Source: a virus. Taken from it: a DNA stretch of 46,428 bases. Below are positions 13,304-33,861 of this stretch, piece by piece. The stretch is taken from positions 1 through 46,428 of the IMG/VR virus record IMGVR_UViG_3300027742_000004. One strand, written 5' to 3'. The stretch's first letter is position 1. Each line of letters begins with the position of its first letter. Below the pieces are notes generated by a model. The model was not told where the DNA came from and did not search any database. It was given only the letters and a program-made list of their open reading frames with translations. The position numbers and the translations under genes were made by a program.

Positions 13304-13307
13304 GCAA

Positions 13308-13333: not shown

Positions 13334-13357
13334 GGTTAACACACAAAGGGTGGCACT

Positions 13358-13972
13358 ATGGCCGTAGCGAGCAAAATCGACATCTGCAACATGGCCCTTG
13401 CGCACCTCGGCAAGCCCAGCATCACCAGTCTGACAGACGGCAGCCCTGAAGCACGCACGTGTGCGCGGCTGTACGACGGCGCGAGACGCGCGAGCTTGGT
13501 CAGAAGCCCGTGGACATTTGCGCGCCGTACGCGTGCGCTGTCCGTCGTGGCGGACAACCCGCTGAGCGACTTCTGGTCGACCCGGTACGATCTTCCGAAA
13601 GACATGCTGAAGATACACCGCCTGCTCGAAGACCCGTCGGACCCGATGGGCAACCATCTTCCGATCGCGTCGTATGTCGAAGAAGGCTCGGTATTCGCTA
13701 ACACGGAAGGGCTGTACCTGCTGTTCATCGTCGACAGTGAGCAGACGCAACGGTGGTCCGCGCTGTTCGACGACGCGGTCGCTTTGCAGCTGGCCGCGCG
13801 GATGGCGCCCACGCTGACGCGTCGTAAAGGTGACGTCAACGAGCTGCGCGATGCGTACGTCGACGCGATCGGGCTCGCCGCGGAGGTTGACGGGCAGCAA
13901 GAGAGCGCGACATACACATTCCACGAGGGCGGGTACGCGGACGATCGAGCCGCCGGCAGCGTCTGGGAGTAA
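13358..13972 (+). CDS. Tail tubular protein A / adaptor (T7 gp11-like)
   Basis: The N-terminus KIDICNMALAHLGKPSITSLTDGSPEARTCARLYD...W.FA is typical of podovirus gp11-like proteins. The gene precedes the gp12-like gene. Confidence 0.65.
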   Translation: MAVASKIDICNMALAHLGKPSITSLTDGSPEARTCARLYDGARRASLVRSPWTFARRTRALSVVADNPLSDFWSTRYDLPKDMLKIHRLLEDPSDPMGNHLPIASYVEEGSVFANTEGLYLLFIVDSEQTQRWSALFDDAVALQLAARMAPTLTRRKGDVNELRDAYVDAIGLAAEVDGQQESATYTFHEGGYADDRAAGSVWE

Positions 13973-13975
13973 CAC

Positions 13976-16552: not shown

Positions 16553-17019
16553 GCATTCGCATCGTACCGATTGACAAGCCTAACGACGCAACGCGCAGCG
16601 TGTCGCTGAGACTACGCGACGAGGACGTACACGAGCTGTGGGCACTGGGTCGGGTAGCGCCGAAAGAGGCTGTGGTGCGGTCGGTGCAGATGTCGACCGA
16701 GGCGTACGTGGTGATGGCGGACGATGAACCGATTGCGGTCTTCGGGGTGTACATCCCGGTGCTGGGGCGCACGGGTGTGCCGTGGTTTCTGGGGACACGC
16801 GAGGTTGACCGGCACGCGCGCGCATACGTGCGGATGGGGCGGAGATACATCGCGCACCTGCTGGATCGTTGCGACGTGCTGATGAACATGGCGTCTGCGG
16901 AGAGCACGACGTCGCTGCGCTTCCTATCTGCCATGGGCTTTGATATACACGAACCAGTGGTGCTGCCGAGCGGCGCACGCGCGGTGACCTTCAGCATGGA
17001 GAAAAACGACAATGTGTGA
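16549..17019 (+). CDS. T7 gp13-like / GNAT-fold-like virion assembly protein
   Basis: 156 aa in the gp13 position. The layout (...PIAVFGV...G.PWFLGT...N.....S..S.RFL.A.GF) resembles acetyltransferase-fold gp13-family proteins. By eye only. Confidence 0.4.
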   Translation: MSIRIVPIDKPNDATRSVSLRLRDEDVHELWALGRVAPKEAVVRSVQMSTEAYVVMADDEPIAVFGVYIPVLGRTGVPWFLGTREVDRHARAYVRMGRRYIAHLLDRCDVLMNMASAESTTSLRFLSAMGFDIHEPVVLPSGARAVTFSMEKNDNV

Positions 17020-17512
17020 ACCGACCACGCTAATGATCGCGAGCACAGTTGTCAGCACGCTGGGGACGATGCAGCAGGCGTCTGCGGCGTCTGCAAACGC
17101 CAAGTTCCAACAGCAGATCGCGCTGGATAACGCCGCGCGGACGACCGAGCAGATGCGCGACGCGAACGAACGCGGCGCGGATCAGGAGCAACAGGTCAGG
17201 GCCGAGGGTGCTAAGGTGCTCGCGAACACCCGCGGCGCGCTGGCGGCCAATAACATGGACCTGACAGTGGGCTCGCCGCTGGACACGATCTTGCAGACCA
17301 GCATGGAAGTCGAGCGTGACGCGTATCGCGTCCGTCGGAACACGCAGTACGAGGTGCGCGATCTCGAGATGCAGCGCACGAACCAGCTGAACCAGTCCAG
17401 CGCGTACGGCGCCGAGGCTAAAAACGCGCGCACGGCGGGCTTCATCGCCGGCGCGGGGACCGCGCTGAGTGGCGCGTCGGACGTCTACAAATATCGAGCG
17501 TCGATCGAGTAA
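17012..17512 (+). CDS. Internal virion protein (T7 gp14-like)
   Basis: 166 aa with an N-terminal hydrophobic segment (TLMIASTVVSTLG) and a helical, Gln/Ala-rich body. It sits in the gp14 position. Confidence 0.55.
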   Translation: MCEPTTLMIASTVVSTLGTMQQASAASANAKFQQQIALDNAARTTEQMRDANERGADQEQQVRAEGAKVLANTRGALAANNMDLTVGSPLDTILQTSMEVERDAYRVRRNTQYEVRDLEMQRTNQLNQSSAYGAEAKNARTAGFIAGAGTALSGASDVYKYRASIE

Positions 17513-17521: not shown

Positions 17522-19936
17522 ATGGCAAGTGTACCGGAATATGAGCGCAGGGTTCAGCTGCGTGCGGAGAACCAGCAAGGTGTCAACGTACGCACGTCCG
17601 CAGACACCTTCGGGGCTCAGGTGGGCCGCGCGGCTGAGCAGGTTGGCGTCGGCATGGCTGACGCGGCTGCCGCGATCGACTACCGCGACCAGCTAAACGC
17701 TGACGCCGAGGCGCGCGAGGCGTACGACAACTACCGATACGATCAGCGCGAGGCGTTGCGTGCACCAGAAACCGGCTACCTGAACCGCACCGGCGGGAAC
17801 GCAGCGGGGGCGCAGCAAGACGCCGAGGCCAAGCTCGACGATCTCGACAAGCGCCACGGCGAGGGACTGTCGCCGCGCGCGCGCAAGAAGTATGACGCGC
17901 TTGTCGGCGAACTGAAGGATCAGGCGCACCAGAGCCTGCTCACGCACACGTCGGGCGAGAGCCGTAACTACATCGTGAACCAGCGTAAATCCACGATCTC
18001 GGGTTACGTGGAAGAAGCCGCGACCAACTGGAATGACGAGGCGCTGTTCGAGCGTAACCTCGGGCTGGCGCTGGCTGAGCAGACACAGCTGGCAAACCTG
18101 CAAGGCTGGGACGCCGCGTCCCAAGAGCGGGCGGCGGAGGAGCTGGTATCGCAGACGTTCCGACAGCGCATCATCCTAGCCGCGACGAACGACCCGATCG
18201 CAGCCAAAGAGCTGCTGGACAACAGCCGAGACATGTTGAACGCGGCTGATGAGCACGCGCTCGACACCAACTTGAAGCAGCTCGTGATCGACGCTAAAGC
18301 GACGCGCGCGGTGCAGCCGTTCGTCCGCCGCGGCGGCGGCGGCGCAGACCCGTACCTGAGCTCGGTGACGCGTGCGGAAAGCGGCGGTAACCCGAATGCG
18401 GCAAACAACAAGGCAAATCCCGGCGTCGCCGCGGCTGACGGGAGCGCGTCGTCTGCGCTGGGGCCGCACCAGTTCCTGCGCGGCACGTACCTTGGGACAG
18501 TAAAAGAGCTGCGCGCAGCCGGGGGCGCCAAGTGGGCCGAAGGTTTGACCGACGACGAGATCGCGGCAACGCGTACGGACACCGCGAAAGAAGGTGAAGT
18601 CTTCACGTTCTTCAGAGAAGGTAACCAGAAGCAGCTGCGCGCCGAGGGCTTCGAGGTGACGCCGGTCAACGAGTACGCCCTGCATCACTTCGGTGACGGC
18701 GGCGGGCTGGCGCTGCTGAGGCTCGCCCGCGGCAAGCCGGGCGCAGACCTGCTGGAAGTCTTCGGGAAAGGGTTGGACGCGGTGCTGAAGGCCAACCCGC
18801 AGTTCAAAGGCAAGACCGCTGGCGAAGCGTACGACTGGCTCGCAAGTCACTTGGGCGCGGACGCGAAGCAAGCCGCGGGGGCGCCGTACTTCGACGGGCG
18901 CGCGGCGATCCAAGCCGCGATGGCAATCGAAGACCCCGAGGTGCAGGCCGCGGCGATGCAGAAGATCGCCAACATGATGGCGATGCAGGACCGGGCGAAC
19001 GCACAAGACCGTGAGAGCGCGCAGAAGGAAGCGTGGGATGGCTACGTGCAGACCGGCGCTACGAACCTGCCGCTCGAGATGCGCAGCCGCATGGGGCAGG
19101 CAGGGTGGGTCGCCTTCCAGAACGCTGTCAAGAACGACCAGCAAGGGGTCGACGTGACCGACGAGCAGACGTGGGAAAATCTCACACGCGCGGCGTCGGA
19201 CCCGAAGAGTTTCGTGGAGATCAATCTCGAGGCGCACCGCGCGAACTTGACAAAATCGGACTACCGCAGCTTCGTACTGGCGCAAGAGGCCGCGCGCGCA
19301 GCCCTGTCTAAAAAGGCGCTCACTACTGAGCAAGCACGGGACAATATGAACTTCGCGAAAATGTTCACCGCGGCAGAGCCGGTGTACGAGGCGATTGTCG
19401 ACAAGACGGCACCGGCGAAACGCTCGCAGGAGAAGCGTCAGCAGAAAGTTGAGTTCGAGCGCAGCCTGATGCAGTTGGCGAAGGAGTTCTTCGATCGCGA
19501 GAAGCGCGAGCCGAACACGGACGAGGTGCGGCAGATGGCGGCGGTAATGACGCTGCCGGTTGAGTTCTACCGCCCGGACGCAGGTTTCTGGGGCGGCGGG
19601 CCCGATGGGGTCAATGAGCTCGGCTCGGGGGCACTGTTCCAAGCGGCCCAGCGCGGGTCGGACGTACGGTACCGCATCGCGGTCGAGTACGACGACATCC
19701 CTATCGCGGATCGGGCGGACATCGCAGCGCAGCTGCTGCGCACCACCGGGGCGCTGCCGTCGGAGGAAGATGTCACGGAAGTATACGAGCAACGCCAGCT
19801 GATGAGCGTCGGGCTGCCGCCGCATGTCGATGTCAGCACGGTACCTGAGTGGTTGAAAGAGGCCGAGAAGGGTGTTAATCCTGACGTCACCGACGACGAA
19901 TTGGTGGAGCTGTACCAGCTGTACCTGATGAAGTAA
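17522..19936 (+). CDS. Internal virion protein with a lytic transglycosylase (SLT-like) domain (gp15 position)
   Basis: SVTRAESGGNPNAANN...SSALGPHQFLRGTY matches the SLT catalytic E-S and G-x-x-Q blocks. 804 aa, between the gp14-like protein and the giant ORF. Confidence 0.65.
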   Translation: MASVPEYERRVQLRAENQQGVNVRTSADTFGAQVGRAAEQVGVGMADAAAAIDYRDQLNADAEAREAYDNYRYDQREALRAPETGYLNRTGGNAAGAQQDAEAKLDDLDKRHGEGLSPRARKKYDALVGELKDQAHQSLLTHTSGESRNYIVNQRKSTISGYVEEAATNWNDEALFERNLGLALAEQTQLANLQGWDAASQERAAEELVSQTFRQRIILAATNDPIAAKELLDNSRDMLNAADEHALDTNLKQLVIDAKATRAVQPFVRRGGGGADPYLSSVTRAESGGNPNAANNKANPGVAAADGSASSALGPHQFLRGTYLGTVKELRAAGGAKWAEGLTDDEIAATRTDTAKEGEVFTFFREGNQKQLRAEGFEVTPVNEYALHHFGDGGGLALLRLARGKPGADLLEVFGKGLDAVLKANPQFKGKTAGEAYDWLASHLGADAKQAAGAPYFDGRAAIQAAMAIEDPEVQAAAMQKIANMMAMQDRANAQDRESAQKEAWDGYVQTGATNLPLEMRSRMGQAGWVAFQNAVKNDQQGVDVTDEQTWENLTRAASDPKSFVEINLEAHRANLTKSDYRSFVLAQEAARAALSKKALTTEQARDNMNFAKMFTAAEPVYEAIVDKTAPAKRSQEKRQQKVEFERSLMQLAKEFFDREKREPNTDEVRQMAAVMTLPVEFYRPDAGFWGGGPDGVNELGSGALFQAAQRGSDVRYRIAVEYDDIPIADRADIAAQLLRTTGALPSEEDVTEVYEQRQLMSVGLPPHVDVSTVPEWLKEAEKGVNPDVTDDELVELYQLYLMK

Positions 19937-19950: not shown

Positions 19951-22900
19951 ATGGCCGACGAGCGCGACGAGTATCTGAAGTGGCGCGAGGCCGACAAGGT
20001 CGAACGCGGTGCGACGACGCAGGCTGACGACTACAACGCGTGGCGCGAAACTCAGCGAGACAGCGCAGCACAGAAAGCCTTGCTAGCGATCGAGAGCGCC
20101 AAGCCTGCGCCCGGCGCGGTCGCGGCGATCGGGCGCGCGAGCGACGCGACCCAGATGGGCTACGAGCTGCCGGCAGACCTGCTGACCGACGATGCGTCGG
20201 AGCTGACCAAGCGTGTCGAGCGCAACACTCGTATGCAGCAGCTGCGCGCGTCGTCCAAGCTGGCAGAGTGGGTGGCTGAAGACCCGATCAACGCGGCGCT
20301 GGCGCAGAGTGAGCTGCGCAGCTTGTCGACTTTGGGCGGCCTGTTGCAGAGCACCGCGAAGGTCGGTGATCGTGTGACGCGCGGGTCGTTCTACAAGGTC
20401 AAGGCCGACCGCGCCGTGGCGACGCTGGATGAACTTCAGACCGTGCGCGCGGACAAAACACGATCCTTCGGCGGGATCGTTGACGATCTGAAAGATGAGA
20501 TCGACACGACGAATGTGGACGCCAACCCGCTGTACACTGTCACGAAGACGTACGCGAAAGCGTTGAGCCGCTTCGCGTCCTCGCGTCTCATGTTTGCTGG
20601 CGACGAGCAGCTCGACGCATACGAAAAAGAGCTTAGCGGCTACGTCGACAAGGCGCTCGCTGAGCGAAGCGGGTATCTTGAGAAGCTGGAACGTGACTAC
20701 GGGATGTCGGCACGTGTGGCTCGTGGTCGGCAGACCATCCAAGACATCGGCGAGCTCGAGGGTGTGGGCGCGCAGCTGTCCGGGCTCGGCGAGTTCATTG
20801 TCAACGATCCGGGCGCCTTCAGCGAGTGGATGGCAAACGTGCTGATCGACAGCTCGCCGGGGCTCGTGGCCGGTGCGGTGGCGACGCGAGTTACCGGGAG
20901 CCCGGCAGCGGGTGCGACGGCGATGGGCCTCACCTCGTACAGCATGAGCAGCAGCAGCGCGTACGACCAGTTCGTCCGCGAGGCCGGGTACGACCTGAGA
21001 GACCCCGAACAGCGCGCGGCCTTCGTGAATGACCCGGCGGCACGCCGCAAGATGAAAGATCGCGCGTTCGCGTACGGCGCGGTTGTCGGTATTATCGACG
21101 CGGCGTCGGGCGGCGTCGCCGCGAGTACGCTCGCGAAAAATGTGTACGGCGAACATATCTTGCAGGCCGTGACGCAGGCGGTGATGGGCAGCAGCGGCGA
21201 GTTGCTGGGGCAGCTGGCGTCGGGACAAGACATCAACATTATCGAAGTCGCGATTGAGGGGCTCGCTGAGTTCGCGACCGCGCCGCTGGAAGCGACGTTT
21301 GTCGGCGGGCGTTACTTGCAAAACTTGCGATCCGCGCGGCAGGATCAGCAGTTCTTCGAGGCGCTGGCGACCTCGGCGGCGGGCAGCGACATGCGCAAGA
21401 AAGTCCCGGCCAAATATCGCGAAGCCGTCGCTAAGCTGACCGCGGACGGCCCGCTCGAGACGCTGTTCGTGGATGCGCAAGGGTTGGACGAATTGTTCCA
21501 GAGCGATCCCGAGGGGGTGACCGCTGAGCAGTTTCTCTCGGCTGTCCCGAATGTTGACATCGCAGCGTTCCGCCGGGCGCTGACCGATGGGGGTGTGGTC
21601 GAGATACCGACGGCGTCGTACGCGTCTGACATCGCGGGTACGCGCTTCGACGAGCTGGTACGCGATCACCTGCGCACGAAACCGGAAAACATGAGCGCGG
21701 CGGAGCTGCGCGCGTATCGTGCGCAGCTGGAAGAGCTGTCCGCACAGGCGCAGCAGGCCGCCGAAGCCAGCGAGAGCGGGCAAACCGAGCTCGAGAAATC
21801 CGCGGAGACGGCACGCGTTGAGCTGGTGTCTGCGCTGCGCCGGGCCGGACGAGCGCCCGACATCGCTGAGCGTGAAGCACTTCAGGCGGTCGCGTTCGCG
21901 CGCACACTGTCGGCGCGTCTCGGTATCACGATGGATGCGTTCTTGCAGCGGTATCCGCTGGCGCAGGTGCAAGGGGTGCTCGAAGCGTCGGGCGGTCAGG
22001 TATCACGGGTGACCGCGGACGCGATGGCCCGCGCGCGCTCGGGCGACGTTAATGATCCTTTGGCGACGGTGTTGAGAGGCGCGGCGGAAGCTGCGGGTCT
22101 CGATCTCGCGACGGCTGAGCCGGCTGAGCTCGAGGCGGCGGTCGAGCAGGTGTACGGTCCCGCAGCGGGCCCGGTCCTGCTGAACCAGATCGGAGCGCCG
22201 ACGGTGACCGGGCTGGACGGCGCGATCACGCCGGACTTCCTGCGTAGCGACGGGTGGGGCGTGGTCACGGCGGCGCGCGGCGTGGAAGCCGACGCAGAGC
22301 AGAACGCGGCGCTCGAGGCTGAGCTGCGCGAGCGGGGTATCCAATTCAAGACGATGTCCGGCATGTACAAAGGCACGCCCGACGGAACGTCGTACATGAT
22401 CTTCGCCGACGCGGCGACCGTACGCGAGCTCGGCGCCAAGTACGGGCAGGAGAGTGTGCTCACGAACGAAGGTCTCGTCTACATGGATGGATCGCCGTCG
22501 ACCGCGCTCGACCCCGACGATCTCGCGATCGGTGACGACGCGACCGCGCGCGAGTTTTACTCGGTCATGGACGACGGTACGGCGTGGTCGGCGGGGTTCG
22601 CGGAAGAGCTGACGCAGGGTCCGGTGTATGATCGTGCGAAGATCGAAGCCCGTGCGGCGGAGCTCGCCGCAGAGATGCAGCCGCTCGCGGGGGCGCCGCG
22701 CGTCCAAGGTGCCACGGGACCGGACCCTATGCTGGTCGCGGTCGCCGAGGCGTACGCCGAGGCAAACGGCATCAGCTACCGTAGGCAGGCTGAGTTCGTG
22801 GAAGTCGATGCTGAGCGCGGCGAGCGGATCGCGGCGGCGTTCGAGGCTATGCCGGCGACGCCCGATCAGAAGTTGACGCAAGCCGCGTACAAACAGCTGA

Positions 22901-25900
22901 TCGAGCAGACCCGTGCGCAGTACGATGCGCTCGTAGCCGCGGGCTACGTGTTCTGGTTCTTCGACCCGAACAACGACCCGTACAAAGGCAACCCGTGGGG
23001 GGCGATGCGTGACCTGCGCGCGAACCGCAGCATGGGCGTCTACCCGACTGACGACGGCTTCGGGACCAGTGATCTTGACGTATCGCAAAACCCGCTGCTC
23101 GCGGACACCGGGCTCGAGTGGGCGTACGGCACGCCGGACGGCGAGACTCGCCCGGTGACGGCGAACGACCTGTTCCGTGCGGTCCACGACGCGTTCGGGC
23201 ACGGCGTAGAAGGCGCGGGCTTCCGTGCGCGCGGTGAAGAGAACGCGTGGCAGGCGCATGTCCGGTTGTTCAAGGGCTGGGCGATCGCCGCACTAACCAC
23301 GGAGACGCGCGGGCAGAACAGCTGGCTGAACTACGGGCCGCACGGTGAAGCGAACCGGACGGCGGCTGTGGACGAGACGGTCTTCGCGGACCAGAAAGCC
23401 GGGCTGTTGCCTGAGTGGGTCTGGAAAGAGGGGATCGCAGAAGACGAGATACCCACGGTTCCGGTCAACGGAGACGGCACTGTCACACTGGTACACTGGT
23501 CTGACGAAGTGCGTGACACGATCGACCCGGCGCAGGCCGGGACGGGGCCGCTGCGCGGCGTCGAGCGCAACCGTCGGGGACCGAACAAGGCGTTCTACGG
23601 CGTCAGCGTCGGGCGTCCGGGCGGGTACCGCAAAGAGAACCTTGGTCCGATCCGGCACGAGGTGCGTGTAGCAGCGCGCGACCTGTACGATCTGGCGCGC
23701 GATCCCGACGGGATCGTGGGGCGTATCCCCGATGATCTGCCCGCGGCGCAGCGCGTAGGCTGGGTCGAAGAACAGATCGCCGCCGCGGGGTTCCGTGGCT
23801 ACGTAGTGACGAACAGCTCGCAAGGAGCGACAGCCGCGCTTTTCGACGCAGCGACGCCGGACAGCGTACGGGACGACCGTACGGTCGAGCTGTTCCAGTC
23901 CGGCGCGCAGCCGGACTTCTTCAGCGCGTTGACACAGCAGGTCGCGCTCGCGAAGCAGAAGAGCGCGACCGCGAAAGACTGGAAGGCGATCATCGGGAAG
24001 CTGCCCGGTATCAAGAAGGCCGAGATCGAGTGGTCCGGCGTGTACGACTGGTTGGACACCCAAGAAGGGCAGGTAGCGCGCGAGACGGTTGCGGCGTTCC
24101 TGCGGAATAACGAAGTCGAGGTCGAGACGTTGCTGCGCGGCGGCGGGGACAGCTCGTTCGAGATATACGAAGACGGCTACGATACCAAAGACCCGGACTA
24201 CGCTTGGCTCGCGACGGAGACGGAAGAACAGCTCGAATTTTTGCGGGAGCAGTTCGTCGACAAGATGAACGATCCGACCAACGAAGACTTCGAGGGCACC
24301 GATTGGACAGTGGCCGACATCCCCGAGGCGGACGCAGAAGTCTTGGAGGAGCGCGCGCACGATAATGCGTACGACGCGTACTATGAAAGCGCGGACCTCG
24401 AGTACAGGTTCACCATCACAGACGAAGAGGGCGATTACCGCACAGAGGTGGTGACGCGCAGCGGCACGGACGGGTCGTACGAGTGGGAGGGCGACACATA
24501 CCGGAACGAGGACGAGCTGCACGAAGCGTTCCGCGAGCGGTACAGCACGGTCGGCGAGGGCTTTGTCGGCGAGGCCAGCTGGGGAGAGTGGGTCGAAGAC
24601 GGCGGCGAGAACTACCGTGAAATTTTGCTCACGGTGCCGTTCCTCGAAGACCGGGGACCGAACGCGCTGCGCGAGCGTGTGCAACCCTTCGTCAACAAAA
24701 ACCACTACGACAACCCGAATATCGTCGTCCACGCGCGGGTCAACGATCGCCGGGCGGCGGACGGAAGCCGTGTCTTGTTCGTGGAAGAAGTGCAGTCGGA
24801 CCTCGGGTCGTTCTGGCGCGGAAAGGAAGTGCCGACGCGTGAGCAGCTGCGGCGGCTCGAGGCGGCGCGGATCGCGTACGAGGACGCGACAAACGCGCAA
24901 GTGGAGGCGCGAGCGGCGCTGTGGGACGAGGTAGAGCGCATCGCTGCGCTACCCGGCACGCGGCTAGACACAGAAAAAACGAGCAACGCAGCGCGACAGC
25001 TTCACGATCTTTGGGTGTATCGTTACGCGCCGAGCGACAGCGTAGAACGCGCGGATCAGGAGTTCTACGCCACCGGCCCCGCTGCGGCGCAACGACGGCT
25101 GCTGGATGCCGCGTTGCCGCAGCGCGGCGACGCAGAGTTTGACGCTGTGCTTGGTAGGTACCAAGAGCTTAACGAAGCCCACGAGGCGGCGGTCGCGCGC
25201 GGCAACGAGGCGGCGGCGGAGCTTTCGCGCGCACGAGACAAGACACGGAATAGCCAGCCCATGACGCCTTTCGAGGGCGAGGCGTATTACGCGCTGATGA
25301 TGAAACGTCTGCTGAAGATGGCGGCAGAGCAGGGCGCGGACAAGCTGGCGTGGACGCCGGCGTACATGCAGGCGCGGCGCTGGTCTGGCGCGGTGCAAAA
25401 CGTAATCAACGAAATCCGCTGGTCTGGCGACGCTACGGCTGAGTTTGACACAGAGACGTCGTCCGTGGCCGATCTTAGAGCCTCGCTGGCGACGCGGGCG
25501 GAGGCGCAACGGGTGCTGATCGACGCGATGCGCGACGAAGTTATGCGCGAGGGCGGTATCCCTGAAGCGGCGCGCGGAGCCGTGCGTGTCGAGAGCACGT
25601 CGTACGACGTTGCTGAGTTCGTGCTGTCGGAGGACGAGACCGTCGAGCCGGACCCGGCGGACTACAGCACGACGTTCGTGGCAGCGGTGCCGGTCTTCCG
25701 CGCGGCGCTGGCCCGGTTGCGCGACCAAGCCGCCCCCGCGGCAGTCACGTTTGATGAAGCCGCAGCGTCGGCGCTGACCGCGGCCAAGACGTACTCGGAA
25801 CGCACGCGAACGACGGTTCGCACGCGCGAGGTGGTGTTGGACGGCGTGAACGGAACGGACGTGATCTCTGTTCGTACCGACACGGGCGAAGTCGTTTCCG

Positions 25901-28900
25901 GTGCGATTGGCAAAGAGAACGTGCAGGGGCAGAAACTCGCTGACATCCTCGGCGGGACGATGGCGCAGCGTATCCTCGGTGAGCCGACCGGCACGATCGA
26001 AAAGCAAAACATTGTCGTCGGCGGCGACGGCTACGTGATTAGCTACGACCAGCAGATCAAGAAGTTCGTCGAAAAGTTCGCGAAGCGTTACGGCTCGAAA
26101 GTGACTGTCGACGCGACCATGCCGGACTTCGCGCGCGACACCGTCTCGGACCCTGTCGTACACGCGATCGAGAGTGTAGGCGCCGCGGAGGTACTGCGCA
26201 GACTACAAGCGCGACCGGATCACGACGCCGAAGCGTTCGCAGTGGCGCGGCGTGATTTTATCGCGGCGAGAGAAGCGTTCGTCACGGATGCGCGTCAAAC
26301 CATCGCGCGGCGTCAGCTACAGCTCGACGCAGACAGGAAATCTCTGATCGACGCGTGGGCGGAGCAAGGACGACCCGTACCGGAGCGTGAGCTCGCGGCG
26401 CTGGATCATCGACAGAGTAACCTCGCCCGTGACAGCGCGCTACTTGACGACATGGACGGGACAAATGACCGCTTTGACGGCGAAAGCGAGAAGTTGGCCG
26501 ACGCAAGTTTTGTCCGCGCGCTGCACAGCAAAGGTTACGATGTACAAGGCGTTCTGACCGCAGACGAGCTACCGCAAGGTGACGCGGTCTGGTCCGTCGA
26601 CATCACCGACAAGATGCGCGAAGCCGCGTCGCAGGCGCAGCCGCTGTTCCAGCGGCGGCCCGACGGCGCGCGCGGCTCGATCCTGCTACCGACGGAACCC
26701 GGCCGCGCGCCGCTGGTGTCGCTGTTCCCGAAGGCTGACCTGTCTACCTTCCTGCACGAGAGCGGGCACTATTACCTGCACGTCCTGCAAGACATCATCG
26801 CGCAAGGCGACGCGCCCGAAGGGCTCGCGAAAGACTGGGACACGATCCGCAACTGGTGGGCAGGGAATATCGAAGGGATCGCCAAGGACGGCGGCGTGTC
26901 TCAGGATCAGGTCGCGGTGTACCTGCGCGACGGGACGACCGGCGACATGGACATCGACCGCAAGGTGAACGTGGGCCTGCAAGAGCAGTGGGCGCGCGGG
27001 TACGAACAGTACCTGCTGGAAGGCAAGTCGCCGTCCCTCGCGCTGCGCACGGCCTTCGAGGCGTTTAGCGCGTGGCTGTTGAGCGTGTATCGTGGCGTAC
27101 GCGGCACGAACGTCGAGATCAACGACGAGCTGCGCGGGGTGTTTGACCGCCTGTTGGCGACCGATGAAGAGATCGCGTCGGCGTCGGCGGACAGCAACAT
27201 GGGCGAGCTGGTGGCTCGGTCTGCCGAGGCGCTCGGTGTCACGGAAGAAGAGTACCAACGGCTCGTCGAGCTGTCTAACGAAGCGCGGGACGAAGCACGT
27301 CAGCAGATGCTGCTGGATGTCATGGCGCCGGTGCGCCGCGCGCGGACTGCCGAGTACCGCGAAGAGCGCGCCAAGGTAGAAGCCGAGGTCCGCGACAAGG
27401 TGAACGCGAAGCCGGCGAACCGGGTTCGTGAATGGCTCGGCAACGAGCGGTGGCTGGGCGCGGGTGACGAAGACCCGAACCCGAGGAAGCTGCCGCTCGA
27501 CCTGCGGATCAATCGGCAGAGCGTGATCGACAACTACGGGCGCGAGGTGCTGGACGCACTGCCCCGAGGCAGTCGTCCGCTGACCACGAGCGAGACCACG
27601 CTGACCGCGGACGACGTCGCGGGCTGGTTCGGCTACCGCTCGGGCAGCGAGATGCTCGACGACGTCACGACGTCGCCCCGCGCGGAGGACGAGATCAAGG
27701 CGCGCACGGATGCGGAGATGCGCAGCCGGTACGGCGATCCGCTCGGCGACGGGTCGATCGAAGAGAGCGCGGTGAAGGCGCTGCACGGCGAGAAGCGCGG
27801 GCAGTTGCTCGCGGCTGAGCTGCGCGCGATCGGTAAGACCGCGCGCAAAGGCAAGACGACGACGCGCAGTCAAGCGCGTGAGATCGCCCGGCGCACCATC
27901 CGGGCGCTGCCGATCGCTAAGGCGGTGCGTAGCGGGCAATACCTCATGGCTGAGCGCCGCGCTGGTGAACGCGCGGCGCAGGCGGTGGCCCGCGGCGACA
28001 TGGACGAGGCGTATCAGGCCAAGCGCGAACAGCTGTTGAACCACCAGCTCTACATGGAGAGCAAAGCCGCGGACGAGGTGCTGTCGAAAGTCGAGAAACG
28101 CGTCGCCAAGCTGAAGAAAAAGTCCGTGCGCAAGAACCTCGCGGGTGAGTATCTCGAGGCGATTGACGACATCCTGACGTCGTACGACTTCCGTAAGTCG
28201 GTGACGCAGCGGCAGGCGCAGCGCCGGGCCGGGCTGGTGGCGTACGTCGAGATGATGAAAGCGGCGGGGCGCGAGAACGAGCTCGCGATCCCGGCGTACG
28301 TGCTCGACGAGGCCCGGCGCCGTCCGTACAAGACGCTGCCGGTGAACGAGCTCGAGGGCGTACTGGACAGCCTGCGCAACATCGAACACACGGCGCGCAT
28401 GAAGCAGAAGCTGCGCGACGCCCAGCGCGAGCGCGACCTGACCGCGACCGTCGAGGGCGTCACCGCGGAGATGGAAGCCAACCTGAAGGACAACGCGCCG
28501 AACCGGGTGGCTACGCCGGGCGAGCGCGCACGCGGCGGGTTGCGAGAGTTCGCGAACCTGCTGTTGAACGCGGACACTCTGCTGCGCAAGATCGGCGGGT
28601 TCGAGATGGGCGCCGCGTACGACGCGATCAAAGCGCCGATCGACGCCGCAGCGGACATGGCGTCCGTCATGCGCGCCGAGGCTGCCGAGGCGTTCGAGCA
28701 GCTGTACAGCGTATACAGCCGGGGCGACCGGCGGCGCATGGCGACGCGCGTGTTCTACAAGGAGCTCGGCGGGTCGTTCACGAAGTGGGACTTGATCTCT
28801 GCGGCGCTGAACATGGGCAACGCCGAGAACCTGTCGCGTCTGATGGACAAGGACAGCGGCGCGGGTTTCACCGCGGAGCAGGTCGACTTTATCAAGGCCA

Positions 28901-30495
28901 AGCTGGACGCACGCGATTGGGCGTTCGTGCAGAGCTCGTGGGATTACATCAACTCGTTCTGGCCGTTGATCGAAGCGCGTGAACGCCGGCTGACCGGGAC
29001 GGCGCCGAAGAAGGTGCAGGCCACTGAAGTCGACACGCCGTACGGTACGTTCGACGGGGGTTACTACCCGATCCGCTACCGTGGGGACATCTCTGGCATG
29101 GTGGCGTCTGAAGAGCTCGCCGAGGTCCAGCAGCGGATGATGGCCGGGCGGTTCGGCAAGGCGCAGACGCGCGCGGGGCACCTCGAAGAACGGGCCATGG
29201 GGTCCGGCGGGCGTGTCTTGCAGCTCGGCATGGAGGTCATGCACCAGCACGTCGGACAGGTGATCCACGATCTCGCCTTCTCGGAGGCTGTGTCGAATAC
29301 TTGGCGTGTCCTGCAAGACCCCCGTGTTCGCGGTATGTTCGAGCGTAAAGGTCTGCTGAAAGACCACCAAGCTCTCGAGCTGTGGGTGCAGGACACCGCG
29401 ACCGGGCAGCTGGCCGCGGGCGGCGTCTTCGGACGGCTGGCGTTGAAGGCGAAGAACGGCTTCACCCTGTCCAAGCTGGCGTTCAACCTGAGCACCGTCG
29501 CGATCCAGCTCACCGGCATCGCGCAGTCCATGGTCGTGATCGGTGCGAAGGACATGGCGGTAGGGTACAGCACGTACTTGTCGAACCCGATGCGCACGTC
29601 GGCGGAGCTGGTCGAGATGTCGCCGTTCATGCGCGAGCGTGAGACGACGTTCAACCGCGACATCAACGACATCCTTGGCGATGTCATGGTCGGGCCCGCG
29701 GCGTCGCGGTCCAAACGGTTCCAGCAGGGTATCGCGCGAGTAGGTTTCTGGCTGATGCAGAAGGTCCAGTTCTACGGGGTCGACGTGCCGACGTGGTACG
29801 GCGCGTACGCGCAGGGGCTGCGCAAATTCGCGACCGAGGAGAAAGCCCGCGCGTACGCCGACCGCATGGTCGCCCGCGCGCAGGCGTCGGGCGTCGTCTC
29901 GGATCGTTCGGCCTTCGAGCGAGGCACGCTGTCGGCGGACACCCGGCAGAACGGCTTCGTCCGGTTGTTCACCGCGCTGGGCTCGTACATGTTCGCGAAA
30001 GGGAACGTAGCGTACGAGGTCATGGGGCGCACGCGGCGGGACGTCGACGGCTTCAACGCGAAGAGCTTTGGTGCGGCGCTGAAAGGCGCGGCGGACATGA
30101 CGATGCTCTTCACGATCGAAGCGATCGCGTACAACCTGATAAAAGGCACGCTGCCCGGCATGGGCGACGACGACGAAGAAAGCTGGGCGCTGTTCCTCGC
30201 GAAAGAGACCGCGCTGTCGATGATGTCCACGATCCCCGGCGTGCGCGATCTGGGCTCGAGCCTGTCGGGTTTTGAAGCCGGCGCGTACGGGTCGATCCTC
30301 GAGACCATGACAAAGCCTGTGATCCAAGGCGCGCAGGGCGAGGCCGACATCGCGTTGTTCAAGGCGCTGAGCGGGGCGCTCGGCGTCGCGACGGGTCTTC
30401 CGTCGGGGCAGTTGAACCGCACTGTCGATGCGTGGTATAGGCTTGAAGAAGGTGAAGACGTTGCCCCGGTGGAGTTCATCATGGGGCGTAGATAG
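19951..30495 (+). CDS. Giant 3,514-aa internal virion/ejection protein, multi-domain (polyvalent)
   Basis: One uninterrupted ORF in the T7 gp16 position. Hydrophobic Gly/Ala-rich segments occur in the N-terminal region, and several hydrophobic helices in the last roughly 600 aa. HESGH (HExxH) is at 26755-26769 and HDAFGH at 23185-23202. Confidence 0.8.
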   Translation: MADERDEYLKWREADKVERGATTQADDYNAWRETQRDSAAQKALLAIESAKPAPGAVAAIGRASDATQMGYELPADLLTDDASELTKRVERNTRMQQLRASSKLAEWVAEDPINAALAQSELRSLSTLGGLLQSTAKVGDRVTRGSFYKVKADRAVATLDELQTVRADKTRSFGGIVDDLKDEIDTTNVDANPLYTVTKTYAKALSRFASSRLMFAGDEQLDAYEKELSGYVDKALAERSGYLEKLERDYGMSARVARGRQTIQDIGELEGVGAQLSGLGEFIVNDPGAFSEWMANVLIDSSPGLVAGAVATRVTGSPAAGATAMGLTSYSMSSSSAYDQFVREAGYDLRDPEQRAAFVNDPAARRKMKDRAFAYGAVVGIIDAASGGVAASTLAKNVYGEHILQAVTQAVMGSSGELLGQLASGQDINIIEVAIEGLAEFATAPLEATFVGGRYLQNLRSARQDQQFFEALATSAAGSDMRKKVPAKYREAVAKLTADGPLETLFVDAQGLDELFQSDPEGVTAEQFLSAVPNVDIAAFRRALTDGGVVEIPTASYASDIAGTRFDELVRDHLRTKPENMSAAELRAYRAQLEELSAQAQQAAEASESGQTELEKSAETARVELVSALRRAGRAPDIAEREALQAVAFARTLSARLGITMDAFLQRYPLAQVQGVLEASGGQVSRVTADAMARARSGDVNDPLATVLRGAAEAAGLDLATAEPAELEAAVEQVYGPAAGPVLLNQIGAPTVTGLDGAITPDFLRSDGWGVVTAARGVEADAEQNAALEAELRERGIQFKTMSGMYKGTPDGTSYMIFADAATVRELGAKYGQESVLTNEGLVYMDGSPSTALDPDDLAIGDDATAREFYSVMDDGTAWSAGFAEELTQGPVYDRAKIEARAAELAAEMQPLAGAPRVQGATGPDPMLVAVAEAYAEANGISYRRQAEFVEVDAERGERIAAAFEAMPATPDQKLTQAAYKQLIEQTRAQYDALVAAGYVFWFFDPNNDPYKGNPWGAMRDLRANRSMGVYPTDDGFGTSDLDVSQNPLLADTGLEWAYGTPDGETRPVTANDLFRAVHDAFGHGVEGAGFRARGEENAWQAHVRLFKGWAIAALTTETRGQNSWLNYGPHGEANRTAAVDETVFADQKAGLLPEWVWKEGIAEDEIPTVPVNGDGTVTLVHWSDEVRDTIDPAQAGTGPLRGVERNRRGPNKAFYGVSVGRPGGYRKENLGPIRHEVRVAARDLYDLARDPDGIVGRIPDDLPAAQRVGWVEEQIAAAGFRGYVVTNSSQGATAALFDAATPDSVRDDRTVELFQSGAQPDFFSALTQQVALAKQKSATAKDWKAIIGKLPGIKKAEIEWSGVYDWLDTQEGQVARETVAAFLRNNEVEVETLLRGGGDSSFEIYEDGYDTKDPDYAWLATETEEQLEFLREQFVDKMNDPTNEDFEGTDWTVADIPEADAEVLEERAHDNAYDAYYESADLEYRFTITDEEGDYRTEVVTRSGTDGSYEWEGDTYRNEDELHEAFRERYSTVGEGFVGEASWGEWVEDGGENYREILLTVPFLEDRGPNALRERVQPFVNKNHYDNPNIVVHARVNDRRAADGSRVLFVEEVQSDLGSFWRGKEVPTREQLRRLEAARIAYEDATNAQVEARAALWDEVERIAALPGTRLDTEKTSNAARQLHDLWVYRYAPSDSVERADQEFYATGPAAAQRRLLDAALPQRGDAEFDAVLGRYQELNEAHEAAVARGNEAAAELSRARDKTRNSQPMTPFEGEAYYALMMKRLLKMAAEQGADKLAWTPAYMQARRWSGAVQNVINEIRWSGDATAEFDTETSSVADLRASLATRAEAQRVLIDAMRDEVMREGGIPEAARGAVRVESTSYDVAEFVLSEDETVEPDPADYSTTFVAAVPVFRAALARLRDQAAPAAVTFDEAAASALTAAKTYSERTRTTVRTREVVLDGVNGTDVISVRTDTGEVVSGAIGKENVQGQKLADILGGTMAQRILGEPTGTIEKQNIVVGGDGYVISYDQQIKKFVEKFAKRYGSKVTVDATMPDFARDTVSDPVVHAIESVGAAEVLRRLQARPDHDAEAFAVARRDFIAAREAFVTDARQTIARRQLQLDADRKSLIDAWAEQGRPVPERELAALDHRQSNLARDSALLDDMDGTNDRFDGESEKLADASFVRALHSKGYDVQGVLTADELPQGDAVWSVDITDKMREAASQAQPLFQRRPDGARGSILLPTEPGRAPLVSLFPKADLSTFLHESGHYYLHVLQDIIAQGDAPEGLAKDWDTIRNWWAGNIEGIAKDGGVSQDQVAVYLRDGTTGDMDIDRKVNVGLQEQWARGYEQYLLEGKSPSLALRTAFEAFSAWLLSVYRGVRGTNVEINDELRGVFDRLLATDEEIASASADSNMGELVARSAEALGVTEEEYQRLVELSNEARDEARQQMLLDVMAPVRRARTAEYREERAKVEAEVRDKVNAKPANRVREWLGNERWLGAGDEDPNPRKLPLDLRINRQSVIDNYGREVLDALPRGSRPLTTSETTLTADDVAGWFGYRSGSEMLDDVTTSPRAEDEIKARTDAEMRSRYGDPLGDGSIEESAVKALHGEKRGQLLAAELRAIGKTARKGKTTTRSQAREIARRTIRALPIAKAVRSGQYLMAERRAGERAAQAVARGDMDEAYQAKREQLLNHQLYMESKAADEVLSKVEKRVAKLKKKSVRKNLAGEYLEAIDDILTSYDFRKSVTQRQAQRRAGLVAYVEMMKAAGRENELAIPAYVLDEARRRPYKTLPVNELEGVLDSLRNIEHTARMKQKLRDAQRERDLTATVEGVTAEMEANLKDNAPNRVATPGERARGGLREFANLLLNADTLLRKIGGFEMGAAYDAIKAPIDAAADMASVMRAEAAEAFEQLYSVYSRGDRRRMATRVFYKELGGSFTKWDLISAALNMGNAENLSRLMDKDSGAGFTAEQVDFIKAKLDARDWAFVQSSWDYINSFWPLIEARERRLTGTAPKKVQATEVDTPYGTFDGGYYPIRYRGDISGMVASEELAEVQQRMMAGRFGKAQTRAGHLEERAMGSGGRVLQLGMEVMHQHVGQVIHDLAFSEAVSNTWRVLQDPRVRGMFERKGLLKDHQALELWVQDTATGQLAAGGVFGRLALKAKNGFTLSKLAFNLSTVAIQLTGIAQSMVVIGAKDMAVGYSTYLSNPMRTSAELVEMSPFMRERETTFNRDINDILGDVMVGPAASRSKRFQQGIARVGFWLMQKVQFYGVDVPTWYGAYAQGLRKFATEEKARAYADRMVARAQASGVVSDRSAFERGTLSADTRQNGFVRLFTALGSYMFAKGNVAYEVMGRTRRDVDGFNAKSFGAALKGAADMTMLFTIEAIAYNLIKGTLPGMGDDDEESWALFLAKETALSMMSTIPGVRDLGSSLSGFEAGAYGSILETMTKPVIQGAQGEADIALFKALSGALGVATGLPSGQLNRTVDAWYRLEEGEDVAPVEFIMGRR

Positions 30496-30506
30496 GATAC
30501 ACGCAC

Positions 30507-33500
30507 ATGACCGTCTCTGAAAACGAAGCTCTCTATTCTGGCCCGTACCTCGGGGGCACCAGCGCGGTCGTCTTCGACTACGACTTCACCGCGCCGGCGG
30601 AGACCGATGTCCTCGTTCTGGTGACGAACGTATCCACGGGTGACCAGACTGAGCTGACGCTCGCGACGGACTACACGGTCGCCGGCGCGGGCGTGAGCGG
30701 CGGTGGCACGATTACCCTCGTGGACGCTGCCCGCGTCCCGGCGGGTTTCGTGATGAGCATCGCGCCCAACATTCCGTACAACCAGACACGCCCGTTCACC
30801 GCGCAGACGTCGACGACGTTGCCCGAGCTCGAGGCGGCGCTCGACAAGCTGACGCTGCTGACGCGCCAGCTGCTCGGCGACGTGACCCGCGCGATCAAAG
30901 TCCCGGTGGGCGAGGATTTCCCGTCCGATGCTGAAGCGTGGCTGCGGTCCTTCCTCAGCGCAGAGCTCGCCGCAGCGGTGGGCGCTGTCGGTTCGCTCGG
31001 TATGTGGCACGTCGACGCGGCGAGCGCGGGCACGTTCCGCGGGCTGTCGACAGGGCAGTCCCCTGTCGTACGCGCGACGACTGTGCCCGTCGGCGGCATC
31101 ATTCCCACGATCCCCGAGACCGTCCGGTTCTGGGACAACGCGACGGACACGTTCGTCGCCAGTGACGGTTCCGACGATTACCTGCTGAACTATGTGCCGT
31201 TGATCGCCAAACGCATCAACGAGCGTACGACGATCCCGGTTGACTGGATCGCGACCGGCAAGGGCGCGACCGGGATCGAAGGTTGGACCGGCAGCGCGGC
31301 GGACAGATCGACGCACACGGTGAACCTTGACGAAGCTGCGCTCGTGGGCGTGCTCGTCGGCGACGTCGTGAGCTGGCCGGCTGACGACGCCGTGTTCCCC
31401 GACGGCACGGGCGTCGTTACGGCGGTGACGGACAGCGGCGCGACCGGCGTGCTCAGTCTGCGCATCACCTCGGGCCGTTCGATGGGCGACAATTACCAGC
31501 TGTTCGACGAGAGCGGCGTGAAGATCGGACGCGTCAACGGCGAGCCGGACACGACGAACCGCGAGCAATTCGTCGAGATCGTTAACAAATTCGACAAGAC
31601 CGGCTGGACCGAACCGCTGCACTACTTCCTGTATGGTGGGTTCGAGGCGAACGGTCTGGACGCGCACGAGACTTTGATCTTCCTGCGCGACGAGTTCTAC
31701 GACGTCCTGATCGCGGAGCTCGAAGCGTTCGGCATCATCGGAAAAGACACCCGCATCGCGATCGTGTCCAGCTATCACAAGCTGGTCGACGAGTACATCG
31801 CATACGATTACAACCGGGCGCCCGGCGATCAGTACGTGATGGCGCAGCATGACGCGCGCGCGGTCTTCGTGCCGACGACCGGGCTGTCGTGCGAGCCCGC
31901 AGAAGAAGCGGTTAACGCAGGGGTGCATCTCGGGTTCGACGCGATCCAGAAAGTTCCTGACCGCTTCGAGGCCGCGCTGGTGTACGGAAACTCGGGCGCT
32001 AACCCGGCGGTGCTGGACGCGATGGACGCCTTTGGTAACCTTGGGTTTGCCCCGTGGGTCGAGCGTAACGCGGTCACAGCTGACACCACGCTGGCGCTGT
32101 CGCAGTGCATGGGCGGCGTCGTGCAGGTGGACACGTCCGGCGGGCCTATCACGCTGTCGCTGCCCGACCTGACCGCCGTGTCCGCGTGGCAGTCCGTGCG
32201 GCGCGCGTATAGCGTGTTCATCAATGTCACCGACGCGAGCAACCCGCTGACGATCGCGGGCAACGGCAAGAACTTCCGCACGCCGTCCAACCGCACGTCG
32301 CTGGCGACGCTGGAAGTGACTGGGACCGGGCTGGTCGAGATCATGTACCGCGGCAACTGGTACGTCTGGGATCACACGCACACGACAGACGCGTCGCCCG
32401 CCGTGATCCGCGACACCGCGCTGGCCGTCACCAACTCGGACAACCCGCTGAAACGGATGGAGTTCGTGCTCGACGATCTGGTCGCGTCGCGTACGCTGTA
32501 CGTCCCGGCGGTACACTTCGGCGAGATGGCGTTGATTACCGCCGACCCGGTCGCGAACCTCGCCGCGATCAACCAAGCCCTCGCGGACAGCGCGACGTCC
32601 GGGCGCCCGTTCCGCCAGATCGGGCTGGGCAGCATCCCGATCGACGGTATCATCCGCCCGCCCACGGGCGCGCGCTTCGTCTGGGAGATGTCGGGCTCGC
32701 AGCTGGTGCCGCAGAGCGACCAAGCGAACGGCTTTATCCGGCCCAGCGTTGACGCAAACTACATGACCGACGCGGACATCGTCGGCGTCCGTATCCGTCC
32801 CGAGGTCGACGGTGCGACTGGTCTGCTCTACACGGGCAACGGCATCGTGGGGCGGTTCCGGCGCTGCCGCGTCGACGGGCTGGACGTACACTACGAGGGC
32901 GATCAGGCGGGTCTGTTCGTCGTCGAAGACTGCACGTTCAACGACCTGCGCTACCACACGGACAGCACCGATGGCGGCACCGGCGGGCCGCGTGTCTTGG
33001 GCGGTCGCAACACCACGTTCCACAACACCGGCGGGAACTCGGGCGACGACGGCCCGCAGCTCACGCCGGCGAAGACGGGCGTGTTCGCGAACCTGAACAT
33101 CGACGGCGTTGTCTTCAACGGTGGCTGGGCGACGTCGCACGGGCGTCCGTTTATTGTCCTCGTCGACAGCACGCTGACATGCTCCATCACCAACAGCGGA
33201 ATGCGCAACATGGTCGGCGTTGGCGAGGATACTGTGTGGAACCCGAACGCCGAGGCGGTCGTCGTAGGCCATCGCGGCGCGACCGGCTGGTGTACGAACA
33301 TCATCATGGACAACATCCAGATCGACGAGGCGAGCCGCGCATCTGCCGTCGGAATTGCCTCCGGCCTGAAAGTGCAGGGTGCCGTGCGCAGCTCGGAGTT
33401 TGACGTGTCGGTCATTAACCCGGCGCGCCGCCTGCTGACCGTGGAGGACGACCCGACCACGCTTCGCGTCCCGATGGACAACACGATCCGCATTCGGTCG

Positions 33501-33851: not shown

Positions 33852-33861
33852 AGGATAGGTA

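Follow-up and report, generated by a model that had tools for sequence, protein, structure and literature searches.

A giant cysteine-free protein of the Bbp10 family, a probable ejection protein and effector carrier in a BPP-1/epsilon15-type podophage

Introduction

Short-tailed phages meet restriction, BREX and other defences before any transcription, and at that time they have no tools other than the proteins that the capsid brings along and injects. Homologs of T7 gp16, designated IVP-D (internal virion protein D), 'variably host ... domains destined for the cytoplasm', as exemplified by N4 vRNAP and the methylase-bearing H66 gp60, and IVP-C and IVP-D candidates are generally extensively alpha-helical (Hardies et al. 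2016, PMC4819975). The same study lists Bbp10 as the IVP-D (T7 gp16) homolog of phage BPP-1. The polyvalent proteins contain a metallopeptidase (MPTase) hub domain with a proposed role in autoprocessing, and a metallopeptidase has also been placed in the region of N4 vRNAP that is needed for encapsidation (Iyer et al. 2017, PMC5512222). One polyvalent protein, the 2,811-aa gp47 of phi24B, was found in virions by proteomics. Giant IVP-D-type carriers of cytoplasm-destined domains, as well as polyvalent proteins, are thus an already published kind. Here we describe a giant open reading frame (ORF) encoding 3,514 aa at positions 19951..30495 of the IMG/VR virus record IMGVR_UViG_3300027742_000004, the 46,428 nt of which are called the window below.

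Among close relatives of this protein, gp35 of PhiXacm4-11 (2,300 aa, CP2 group) was described as a gp16-analog core protein whose model showed no similarity to PDB entries (2026 preprint), and gp16 of OANV1 was called a lysin in a paper on Antarctic phages purely on the strength of its similarity to Bbp10. Our analysis favours, with a probability of roughly 0.7, the reading that, among the internal virion (ejection) proteins of a BPP-1/epsilon15-type podophage, the giant protein is the largest, a functional counterpart of T7 gp16 that has been enlarged into a polyvalent effector carrier.

Results

The giant protein is a large new member of the Bbp10 family

At the protein level, the C-terminal 1,300 aa of the giant protein match 50 phage records, and the phrog_9880 profile matches aa 2220-3508 with 1,033 bits. 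Identity in this conserved core is 75% to gp16 (2,986 aa) of the Octadecabacter Antarctic virus OANV1 (OANTBDV-1), 50% to the homolog in Nostoc phage Nsp-JY18 (4,012 aa) and to its counterpart in Microcystis phage Mel-JY33, both of which are annotated 'lysin', and ~30% to Xanthomonas CP2 ORF24 (2,478 aa), Caulobacter SR18 gp040c (2,002 aa), BPP-1 Bbp10 (2,052 aa), Pseudomonas AF gp16 (2,213 aa) and a Vibrio MZH0603 protein (1,902 aa). By blastp, Bbp10 aligns with aa 2256-3512 of the window protein at an E value of 1.6e-137. We also observed that Nsp-JY18 (homolog at 3886-15924) and Mel-JY33, which were deposited with different cyanobacterial hosts, give virtually identical matches in both query span and identity.

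In OANV1, BPP-1, Nsp-JY18, CP2, SR18, AF and MZH0603, the giant gene comes after the genes for a small internal virion protein and a lytic gp15-like protein and is followed by the tail fibre or spike gene, and in the window the giant ORF fills the gp16 slot of a cassette that runs gp14-like gene, gp15-like gene, giant gene, tail fibre gene. On homology, position and the presence of an HExxH motif, all of them read from sequence, the giant protein is a large new member of the BPP-1 Bbp10/phrog_9880 family, to which it is homologous from end to end. Its size is not unique, as relatives of 2,986, 3,485, 3,799 and 4,012 aa exist. The assignment to IVP-D rests on the listing of Bbp10 by Hardies et al. 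A first-pass annotation, made by a model that saw only the sequence, had placed the ORF in the T7 gp16 position. The slot, which follows the gp14-like and gp15-like genes and precedes the tail fibre gene, is borne out by the PHROG and Pfam matches of the neighbours and by the homology to Bbp10; the phage itself is a BPP-1/epsilon15-type podophage and not strictly T7-like.

A fixed scaffold surrounds a hypervariable insertion site

Giant ORFs were extracted from 80 fetched relatives, out of at least 585 in IMG/VR, and together with 8 reference proteins gave a family set of 84 members, with a median length of 2,301 aa and a maximum of 4,012 aa; entries shorter than ~1,900 aa appear to be cut by the end of the locus. 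By pairwise BLAST, an N-region (aa 1-735) and a core (aa ~2213-3514) could be told apart in the window protein, with a variable middle (aa ~735-2212) between them. The features of the gene are as follows.

19951..30495, + strand: giant ORF, 3,514 aa, ATG start; Bbp10-family protein in the gp16/IVP-D position
19951..22155, + strand: conserved N-terminal region, aa 1-735; 50% identity to OANV1 gp16 over aa 13-735
22129..22590, + strand: module D, aa ~727-880; putative DUF3293-family, SAM-lyase-like module, from the Pfam matches of homologous segments
22621..23490, + strand: module A, aa ~891-1180; widespread domain with RxVHDxFGH...GEENAxQxH...ETRGQNSWLN
23491..23850, + strand: module M1180, aa ~1181-1300; common to OANV1 gp16, L012, L034, L013 and Nsp-JY18
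23851..25470, + strand: tripartite block, aa ~1301-1840 (~540 aa); three conserved parts
25771..26250, + strand: module M1960, aa ~1941-2100; present in ~75 of the 150 best representatives (see below), Nsp-JY18, L034, L013 and L039
26587..27390, + strand: HExxH module opening the core, aa ~2213-2480; invariant in 8 family members
27391..30492, + strand: remainder of the conserved core, aa ~2481-3514; phrog_9880; 75% identity to OANV1 gp16 and 30% to Bbp10

A segment of the N-region designated N2 (aa ~460-735) was detected in most of the 84 relatives, with BPP-1 aligning to aa 476-776. In nearly all of them, the stretch from the ST..HE..H motif to the C-terminus has a median length of 1,244 aa and is mostly 1,176-1,349 aa long. 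The segment from the end of N2 to the HExxH motif, on the other hand, spans anywhere from 57 to 2,001 aa, a 35-fold range of insert size among phages on contigs of 40-57 kb, and the 1,530-aa insert of the window protein is the third largest of the set. This insert holds at least six modules, ~1,500 aa in total.

Comparison with close relatives revealed how the insert changes. The closest of them, L034 (3,485 aa), is collinear with the window protein, with aa 885-1153 (module A) swapped for ~325 unrelated residues and aa 1839-1958 absent, while L012 lacks module D and has ~340 aa in place of aa 1324-2224. These swaps provide direct evidence of cassette exchange at the hotspot. Judged from these alignments, the family as a whole has a fixed scaffold composed of a conserved N-region, a hypervariable insert and a C-terminal core of ~1,245 aa that opens with the HExxH module and closes with two conserved hydrophobic helices. 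No published description of this scaffold-plus-hotspot picture, in quantified form, was found for the Bbp10 family.

The first-pass annotation had estimated ~2,000 aa of globular modules between the two ends of the protein, a figure that is reduced here to ~1,480-1,530 aa (aa ~735-2212). The motif sites that it quoted were located correctly (HESGH at nt 26755-26769, HDAFGH at nt 23185-23202, NPNIVVHARVNDRR at nt 24712-24753 and LFVEEVQSD at nt 24775-24801), as was a Gly/Ala/Ser-rich hydrophobic stretch near aa 290-420. Indeed, aa 290-460 contain 17.5% Ala, 10.5% Gly and 8.8% Ser, with a hydropathy peak at aa 377-395. It had also considered that the central region might prove to be structural repeat and nothing else; no internal repeats were found in the 3,514-aa protein, and a tape-measure-like repeat protein was rejected on that ground.

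Elsewhere in the scaffold, aa 51-139 of the N-region match LPD22 with 26.3 bits, which is under the cutoff of 28.6. Ala, Arg, Glu and Leu are abundant in the core, the invariant positions of which include a GGYYPxxY motif (aa 3036-3043). Hydrophobic helices are found in the core at aa 3176-3198 and 3380-3397, and hydrophobic peaks recur ~340 aa from the C-terminus in 4 of 7 relatives and ~150 aa from it in 6 of 7.

The insert is built from modules shared with polyvalent-type proteins

Scans of the whole protein and of 450-aa segments against Pfam and NCBIfam returned only sub-threshold LPD22 and DUF3293 matches, and a sequence search of the entire 3,514 aa against the PDB returned nothing. In line with the first-pass annotation, there was no RNA polymerase, methyltransferase or helicase match to Pfam in the giant protein. 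None of the curated polyvalent-domain Pfam models scored above its cutoff, LPD22 being the best of them, and MPTase-PolyVal was not matched. The combinatorial build of polyvalent proteins is nevertheless evident, with at least six discrete modules, each of which has its own distribution. In other proteins, these modules co-occur with ART-PolyVal, MuF_C, LPD3, LPD23, LPD37, LPD38, LPD39 and PBECR5.

Module D is the only one for which a relationship to an enzyme family could be proposed. Of 14 homologous segments, 12 match DUF3293 (PF11697; best E 4.7e-17) and 9 match S-AdoMet_lyase (PF23780; best E 4.7e-6) at the E<=1 limit. When the module D family was aligned by hhalign with the T3 S-adenosylmethionine (SAM) lyase, residues 12-150 of 152 were covered (E 0.0035, probability 9%), with the G-x-Y and Q positions in register. 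In the SAM lyase Svi3-3, Gly56, Glu69 and Gln104 are strictly conserved and Tyr58 packs on the substrate (PMC7877911). The invariant residues of module D form a G-x-Y motif (G85/Y87 of the segment) and a Q114-E-S116 motif, which align with the G-C-Y and the Q of the T3 enzyme. A PDB profile search with module D gave nothing significant. A kinship of module D to the SAM-lyase superfamily is plausible.

Module A gave at least 843 matches, with ~60% identity among the matches listed, and has no Pfam assignment. Its AlphaFold2 model is confident, with a predicted local distance difference test (pLDDT) score of 90.4 and a predicted template modelling (pTM) score of 0.88. No PDB neighbour was found for this model by Foldseek, the best E value being 0.95, and a PDB profile search gave nothing significant. 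In BFVD the model has 21 matches, all of them uncharacterised, MuF-, ART-PolyVal- or LPD-bearing viral proteins, including one of mycobacteriophage Spud. The invariant residues include H1079/D1080. An identity as an HD phosphohydrolase was rejected, as there was no Pfam or fold match, and the RelA/SpoT annotation carried by a MinM2 homolog was rejected for lack of Pfam support. The start of the module (nt 22621-22800, aa ~891-950), which reads GPDxxLVxVAExYAxxNGI, weakly matches (E 0.055) chain I of PDB 3duf, the peripheral-subunit-binding (PSBD, E3-binding) domain of dihydrolipoyl acetyltransferase.

Module A also exists outside giant proteins. On the integrase-bearing 46.4-kb contig L185 (8001-12167), it has a gene of its own (369 aa), with an LPD38-containing gene following a few genes downstream, which indicates that payload modules can be encoded individually. 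On two other contigs (L186 8001-13486 and L187 6749-12234), a stand-alone 511-aa module A protein is immediately followed by a Cys-free protein of 1,316 aa without a Pfam match. The latter lies next to Prim-Pol and AAA_24 replication genes and may be another kind of injected protein; that it is a split-off core was rejected, as it is unrelated to the Bbp10 core.

The tripartite block consists of part i (aa ~1305-1400), part ii (aa ~1540-1632), with GGxNYRExL...H...NxxxHxRxxxR...EExQSD, and part iii (aa ~1766-1832), with PxxPF...KR...WTxxxxQxxRW/Y. The invariant polar residues are Y-R-E, H, R...R and E-x-Q-S-D in part ii, including E1612/Q1614/D1616, and P..P...K...R in part iii. The block had no Pfam match, and PDB profile searches with parts ii and iii gave nothing significant. 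A word-indexed homolog search with aa 1180-2215 gave 2 matches, and exhaustive HMMER was used instead, which retrieved 6,207 representative proteins at E<=1e-3; most of the listed ones are giants, with lengths of 1,400-7,483 aa. Among the best 150 of these 6,207 representatives, the tripartite block was present in more than 100 and a gp16-type core in only 37. An origin of the block in conjugative elements was rejected, since a single weak match was found among 72,556 plasmids.

The modules with the strongest conservation, namely A, the EExQSD block and the HExxH module described below, are thus outside Pfam, and module A is also outside known folds; no published description of this was found.

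An invariant HExxH module opens the conserved core

The first-pass annotation had counted the HExxH motif among the globular cargo of the middle region. However, the module that contains it is the first module of the conserved C-terminal core and is invariant across the family, and is therefore a core feature rather than cargo. Alignment of 8 members revealed S2265, T2266, H2269, E2270, G2272 and H2273 as invariant around the motif and, further downstream, E2345, A2348, R2349, E2352 and Y2354, among others, in a block that reads E..AR..E.YL. Glu2345 and Glu2352 lie 72-79 aa beyond HExxH, and both segments are helical in the AlphaFold2 model. That model has an overall pLDDT of 69.7, rising to 80-98 for aa ~2264-2394, and its confident part is all-helical. 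Outside the gp16 family the module is found in short proteins, directly after MuF_C, LPD3 or ART-PolyVal, a placement of the sort reported by Iyer et al. for the zincin-like MPTases at the hub of polyvalent proteins.

Cysteine is almost completely avoided

The giant protein contains no Cys in its 3,514 aa, and the 84 family members together have 17 Cys in 196,737 residues. By comparison, the mean Cys content of ten other proteins encoded by the phage is 0.51%. Cys is likewise absent from T7 gp15, T7 gp16 and N4 gp50 (3,500 aa). The window's gp15-like protein and portal are also Cys-free. Such an absence would be compatible with unfolded passage through the tail channel and with an oxidising periplasm. 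No published description of this near-absolute Cys avoidance in the Bbp10 family was found.

The giant ORF is a single gene in a complete circular genome

The first 99 nt of the window (1-99) are an exact copy of its last 99 nt (46330-46428), so that the window represents a complete genome, assembled as a circle of 46,329 bp. The giant ORF occupies 22.8% of it, in agreement with the ~23% given by the first-pass annotation for one 3,514-codon frame. An AGGAG ribosome-binding site lies 7-8 nt 5' of its ATG. The ORF begins 14 nt past the stop codon of the 804-aa gene, and the next ATG is 11 nt beyond its end. In every 900-nt segment, the G+C content of third codon positions (GC3) is 78-91% and that of second positions (GC2) 42-51%, giving an even coding signal. 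The coding frame contains the terminal stop only, while the two other frames contain 100 and 96 stops.

An identical 3,514-aa product is encoded on 4 contigs from at least two sources, including ENA ERZ27237536 (46,470 bp) and JGI 3300001749 (44,623 bp). That it recurs in assemblies made independently (ENA and JGI) speaks against a frameshift or an assembly artefact, and the prospect that the ORF might be broken into ordinary genes by frameshifts, which the first-pass annotation had named as its own refutation, is effectively closed. The giant ORF is a genuine single gene. Two long antisense ORFs, 26686-30327 (-) and 29772-33902 (-), of 1,213 and 1,376 aa, overlap the giant and tail-fibre genes; as is usual for such frames, we read them as by-products of GC3-rich sense frames and not as genes. 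No close DNA relative of the window was found among 50,697 phage records, and no tRNA genes were found in the window.

The surrounding genes were identified by PHROG scans of the window proteins.

6734-8251: terminase (PHROG)
8530-10227: portal (PHROG)
11338-12333: major capsid protein (PHROG)
13976-16552: tail tube B (PHROG)
17012..17512, + strand: gp14-like internal virion protein, 166 aa; phrog_418 'internal virion protein', E 6e-21
17522..19936, + strand: gp15-like internal virion protein with lytic domain, 804 aa, 0 Cys; phrog_10475 and phrog_1044 'endolysin'
30507..33851, + strand: tail fibre, 1,114 aa, downstream boundary of the cassette; N-terminal ~130 aa match tail-fibre/tail-protein PHROGs
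33862-34614: separate endolysin (PHROG)

For a product identical to the 166-aa protein, Pfam PF24072 T7_gp14 is on record. The 804-aa protein is syntenic with BPP-1 Bbp11, which carries the annotation 'containing a transglycosylase'. The distal ~980 aa of the tail fibre have no PHROG match and are presumably receptor-binding.

Discussion

A proposed mechanism and the evidence that weighs against it

Since its discrete modules are shared with thousands of giant polyvalent-type proteins, the precedents of DarB, N4 vRNAP and the polyvalent proteins fit the giant protein. By analogy with T7, N4, phi24B and the polyvalent-protein literature, from which we infer packaging, ejection, a conduit, cytoplasmic cargo action and the role of HExxH, a few copies of the protein would be packed in the capsid core. 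At infection, the Cys-free polypeptide would precede the DNA through the portal-tail channel, being threaded in unfolded form, and the conserved core and its hydrophobic helices could help to build a trans-envelope conduit. The ~1,500 extra residues are probably injected into the host with the DNA. The candidate cargo, that is the DUF3293/SAM-lyase-like module, the HDAFGH domain and the EExQSD block, would then be in the cytoplasm at time zero and may act on host defence or metabolism before phage gene expression. The HExxH module would most likely be a zincin-like autoprocessing peptidase or, alternatively, a metal-dependent assembly/encapsidation element, in parallel with the metallopeptidase in the encapsidation region of N4 vRNAP.

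In its most specific form, this proposal makes the insert a payload bay with at least two new enzyme families (module A and the EExQSD block) and a SAM-lyase-like DUF3293 module, all delivered at DNA entry and released by the HExxH module. We consider that version speculative and would sooner bet against it than for it. If it were true, the SAM-lyase-like domain could put SAM-dependent restriction or BREX out of action ahead of any exposure of the DNA, and the Bbp10-family hotspot would represent a natural swappable bay for pre-expressed anti-defence enzymes.

Several results count against the carrier reading or parts of it. In hhalign comparisons of the core with T7-like gp16, the C-terminal domain of N4 gp50 and epsilon15 gp16/gp17, run with single sequences and with family profiles, the probability did not exceed 4.4%, but the same set-up also misses the T7-N4 link. 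The literature that bears on virion presence and ejection of the giant protein and its close relatives is indirect and concerns relatives only, and enzymatic activity is a proposal for each of the cargo modules. The window's own copy of module D is below the Pfam cutoffs for DUF3293 (22.3 bits, cutoff 25) and for S-AdoMet_lyase (15.3 bits, cutoff 28), and it has no invariant acidic residue that matches the catalytic Glu69 of SAM lyases. The first-pass proposal of a polyvalent ejection protein accordingly stands as regards the shared modules and falls short as regards enzymes, with only module D weakly linked to an enzyme family (SAM lyase). Its membrane-inserting C-terminal helices fare similarly: two are conserved, but they are only moderately hydrophobic (Kyte-Doolittle ~1.5) and marginally transmembrane-like.

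The same caution applies to the HExxH module. A Pfam peptidase search with 7 family members found nothing significant, M78, M32 and DUF6782 appearing at E 0.014-0.1 only, and a PDB profile search gave no match. When the AlphaFold2 model was compared with the PDB by Foldseek, there was no hit at E<=0.001 and no peptidase in the top 50. The beta-sheet of a zincin is not seen in the model; its expected place, the 64 residues upstream of the HExxH helix, has a pLDDT <50, so this is not decisive. The motif is present, the zincin fold is not confirmed, and the protease suggested by the first-pass annotation is not supported by these searches or by the all-helical model, which has no zincin neighbour.

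Alternative explanations

The insert could instead be purely structural, the extra 1,500 aa serving as part of an ejectosome or as a 'ruler' that lengthens or stabilises the channel or the internal core, with no effector role. Such a reading would be in keeping with the lack of a recognisable enzyme family for most of the protein, with the composition of the core, with its sole modelled segment being all-helical as IVP-C and IVP-D are in general, and with the basal family members of 1,900-2,100 aa, which work with almost no insert. Yet a ruler does not fit a 35-fold variation in insert size at similar capsid genome size. Nor would it be expected to consist of discrete modules that are exchanged between close relatives, occur outside the gp16 family and, for module A, also stand alone. 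The invariant His, Asp, Glu, Arg and Gln constellations in the modules, the relation of the module D family to SAM lyases and the absence of repeats point the same way, and we regard a solely structural role as unlikely. Sequencing or assembly error joining ordinary genes, or a pseudogene-like read-through at high G+C, is hardly credible. High-GC genomes do yield long spurious ORFs, as the two antisense frames here illustrate, but the identical ORF in independent assemblies, the strong and even GC3 signal in one frame only and the presence in relatives, some of them cultured phages, of collinear single ORFs that encode 2,825-4,012 aa all speak for one gene.

A virion-associated lysin, in which HExxH would mark a metallopeptidase that cuts peptidoglycan and so lets the short tail through the cell wall, is what GenBank labels imply for OANV1 gp16, Nsp-JY18 and Bbp10 ('lysin containing a beta/gamma crystallin motif'). 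The invariance of HExxH would suit such a function, and the authors of the phi24B study propose peptidoglycan degradation by the metallopeptidase of their giant ejection protein. The labels, however, trace to Bbp10 similarity and to a motif-based label on Bbp10 itself, and no lytic, crystallin or peptidase family was found by Pfam, NCBIfam or PHROGs. The HExxH model has no match to cell-wall peptidases, and muralytic function resides in the adjacent gp15-like protein, with the separate endolysin encoded downstream. We therefore consider a lysin very improbable, and an ejection protein that carries effectors remains our preferred reading of the giant protein.

Significance

With this gene, a phage of only 46 kb presents a conserved ejection scaffold in the role of a carrier, the payload region of which can be exchanged. 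New anti-defence or host-takeover activities may reside in three highly conserved candidates, module A, the EExQSD block and the HExxH module. A further outcome is a correction of the misleading 'lysin/crystallin-motif' annotation, which is spreading in GenBank, apparently by similarity to Bbp10. Because the general concept of polyvalent proteins and of IVP-D homologs with cytoplasmic domains has already been published, the value of the work lies in candidate discovery and not in a new principle.

Comparison with known systems

The window protein resembles T7 gp16 in its position after gp14- and gp15-like genes and before the tail fibre, and in being Cys-free. By contrast, T7 gp16 has 1,318 aa and its own N-terminal lytic transglycosylase, while in the window phage the lytic domain belongs to the gp15-like protein; unlike the window protein, T7 gp16 has neither a cargo insert nor a conserved HExxH at the equivalent place. 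N4 gp50 is giant, Cys-free, encapsidated and injected, with its enzyme upstream of a C-terminal IVP-D-homology region (PMC4819975). Its cargo is an RNA polymerase, which, according to Pfam, that of the window protein is not. The only HExxH of N4 gp50 (aa 2228) is located 1,272 aa from the C-terminus, compared with 1,245 aa for the window protein and 1,255 aa for Bbp10. The C-terminal regions of N4 gp50 and the window protein did not align, and we take the matching position in N4 gp50 and the window protein to be a coincidence of architecture.

With the polyvalent proteins (P1 DarB/DdrB and phi24B gp47), the giant protein shares many unrelated modules, near-threshold LPD22 and DUF3293 matches and an HExxH hub beside the cargo. 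In those systems the carrier is MuF/portal-associated or conjugative, whereas here it is a gp16-type ejection protein. Module D resembles the phage SAM lyases (T3 gp0.3 and Svi3-3) in its invariant G-x-Y and Q(-E-S) motifs, which in Svi3-3 serve to bind SAM, although its inter-motif loop is shorter and it has no clear equivalent of Glu69. The phage SAM lyases are small, early-expressed, trimeric enzymes, while module D, if it is related to them, would be a version embedded in a giant protein.

The closest likeness is to the Bbp10 family itself, with which the window protein shares the genomic slot, N2, a core of ~1,250 aa (30-75% identity), HExxH, the hydrophobic peaks in most relatives and the lack of Cys. 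Bbp10 (2,052 aa) has an insert of only ~190 aa, compared with 1,530 aa in the window protein. The 4,012-aa homolog of Nsp-JY18 is the only examined relative that contains module D, module A, M1180, the tripartite block and M1960 together, and it carries them in a different order and with extra material.

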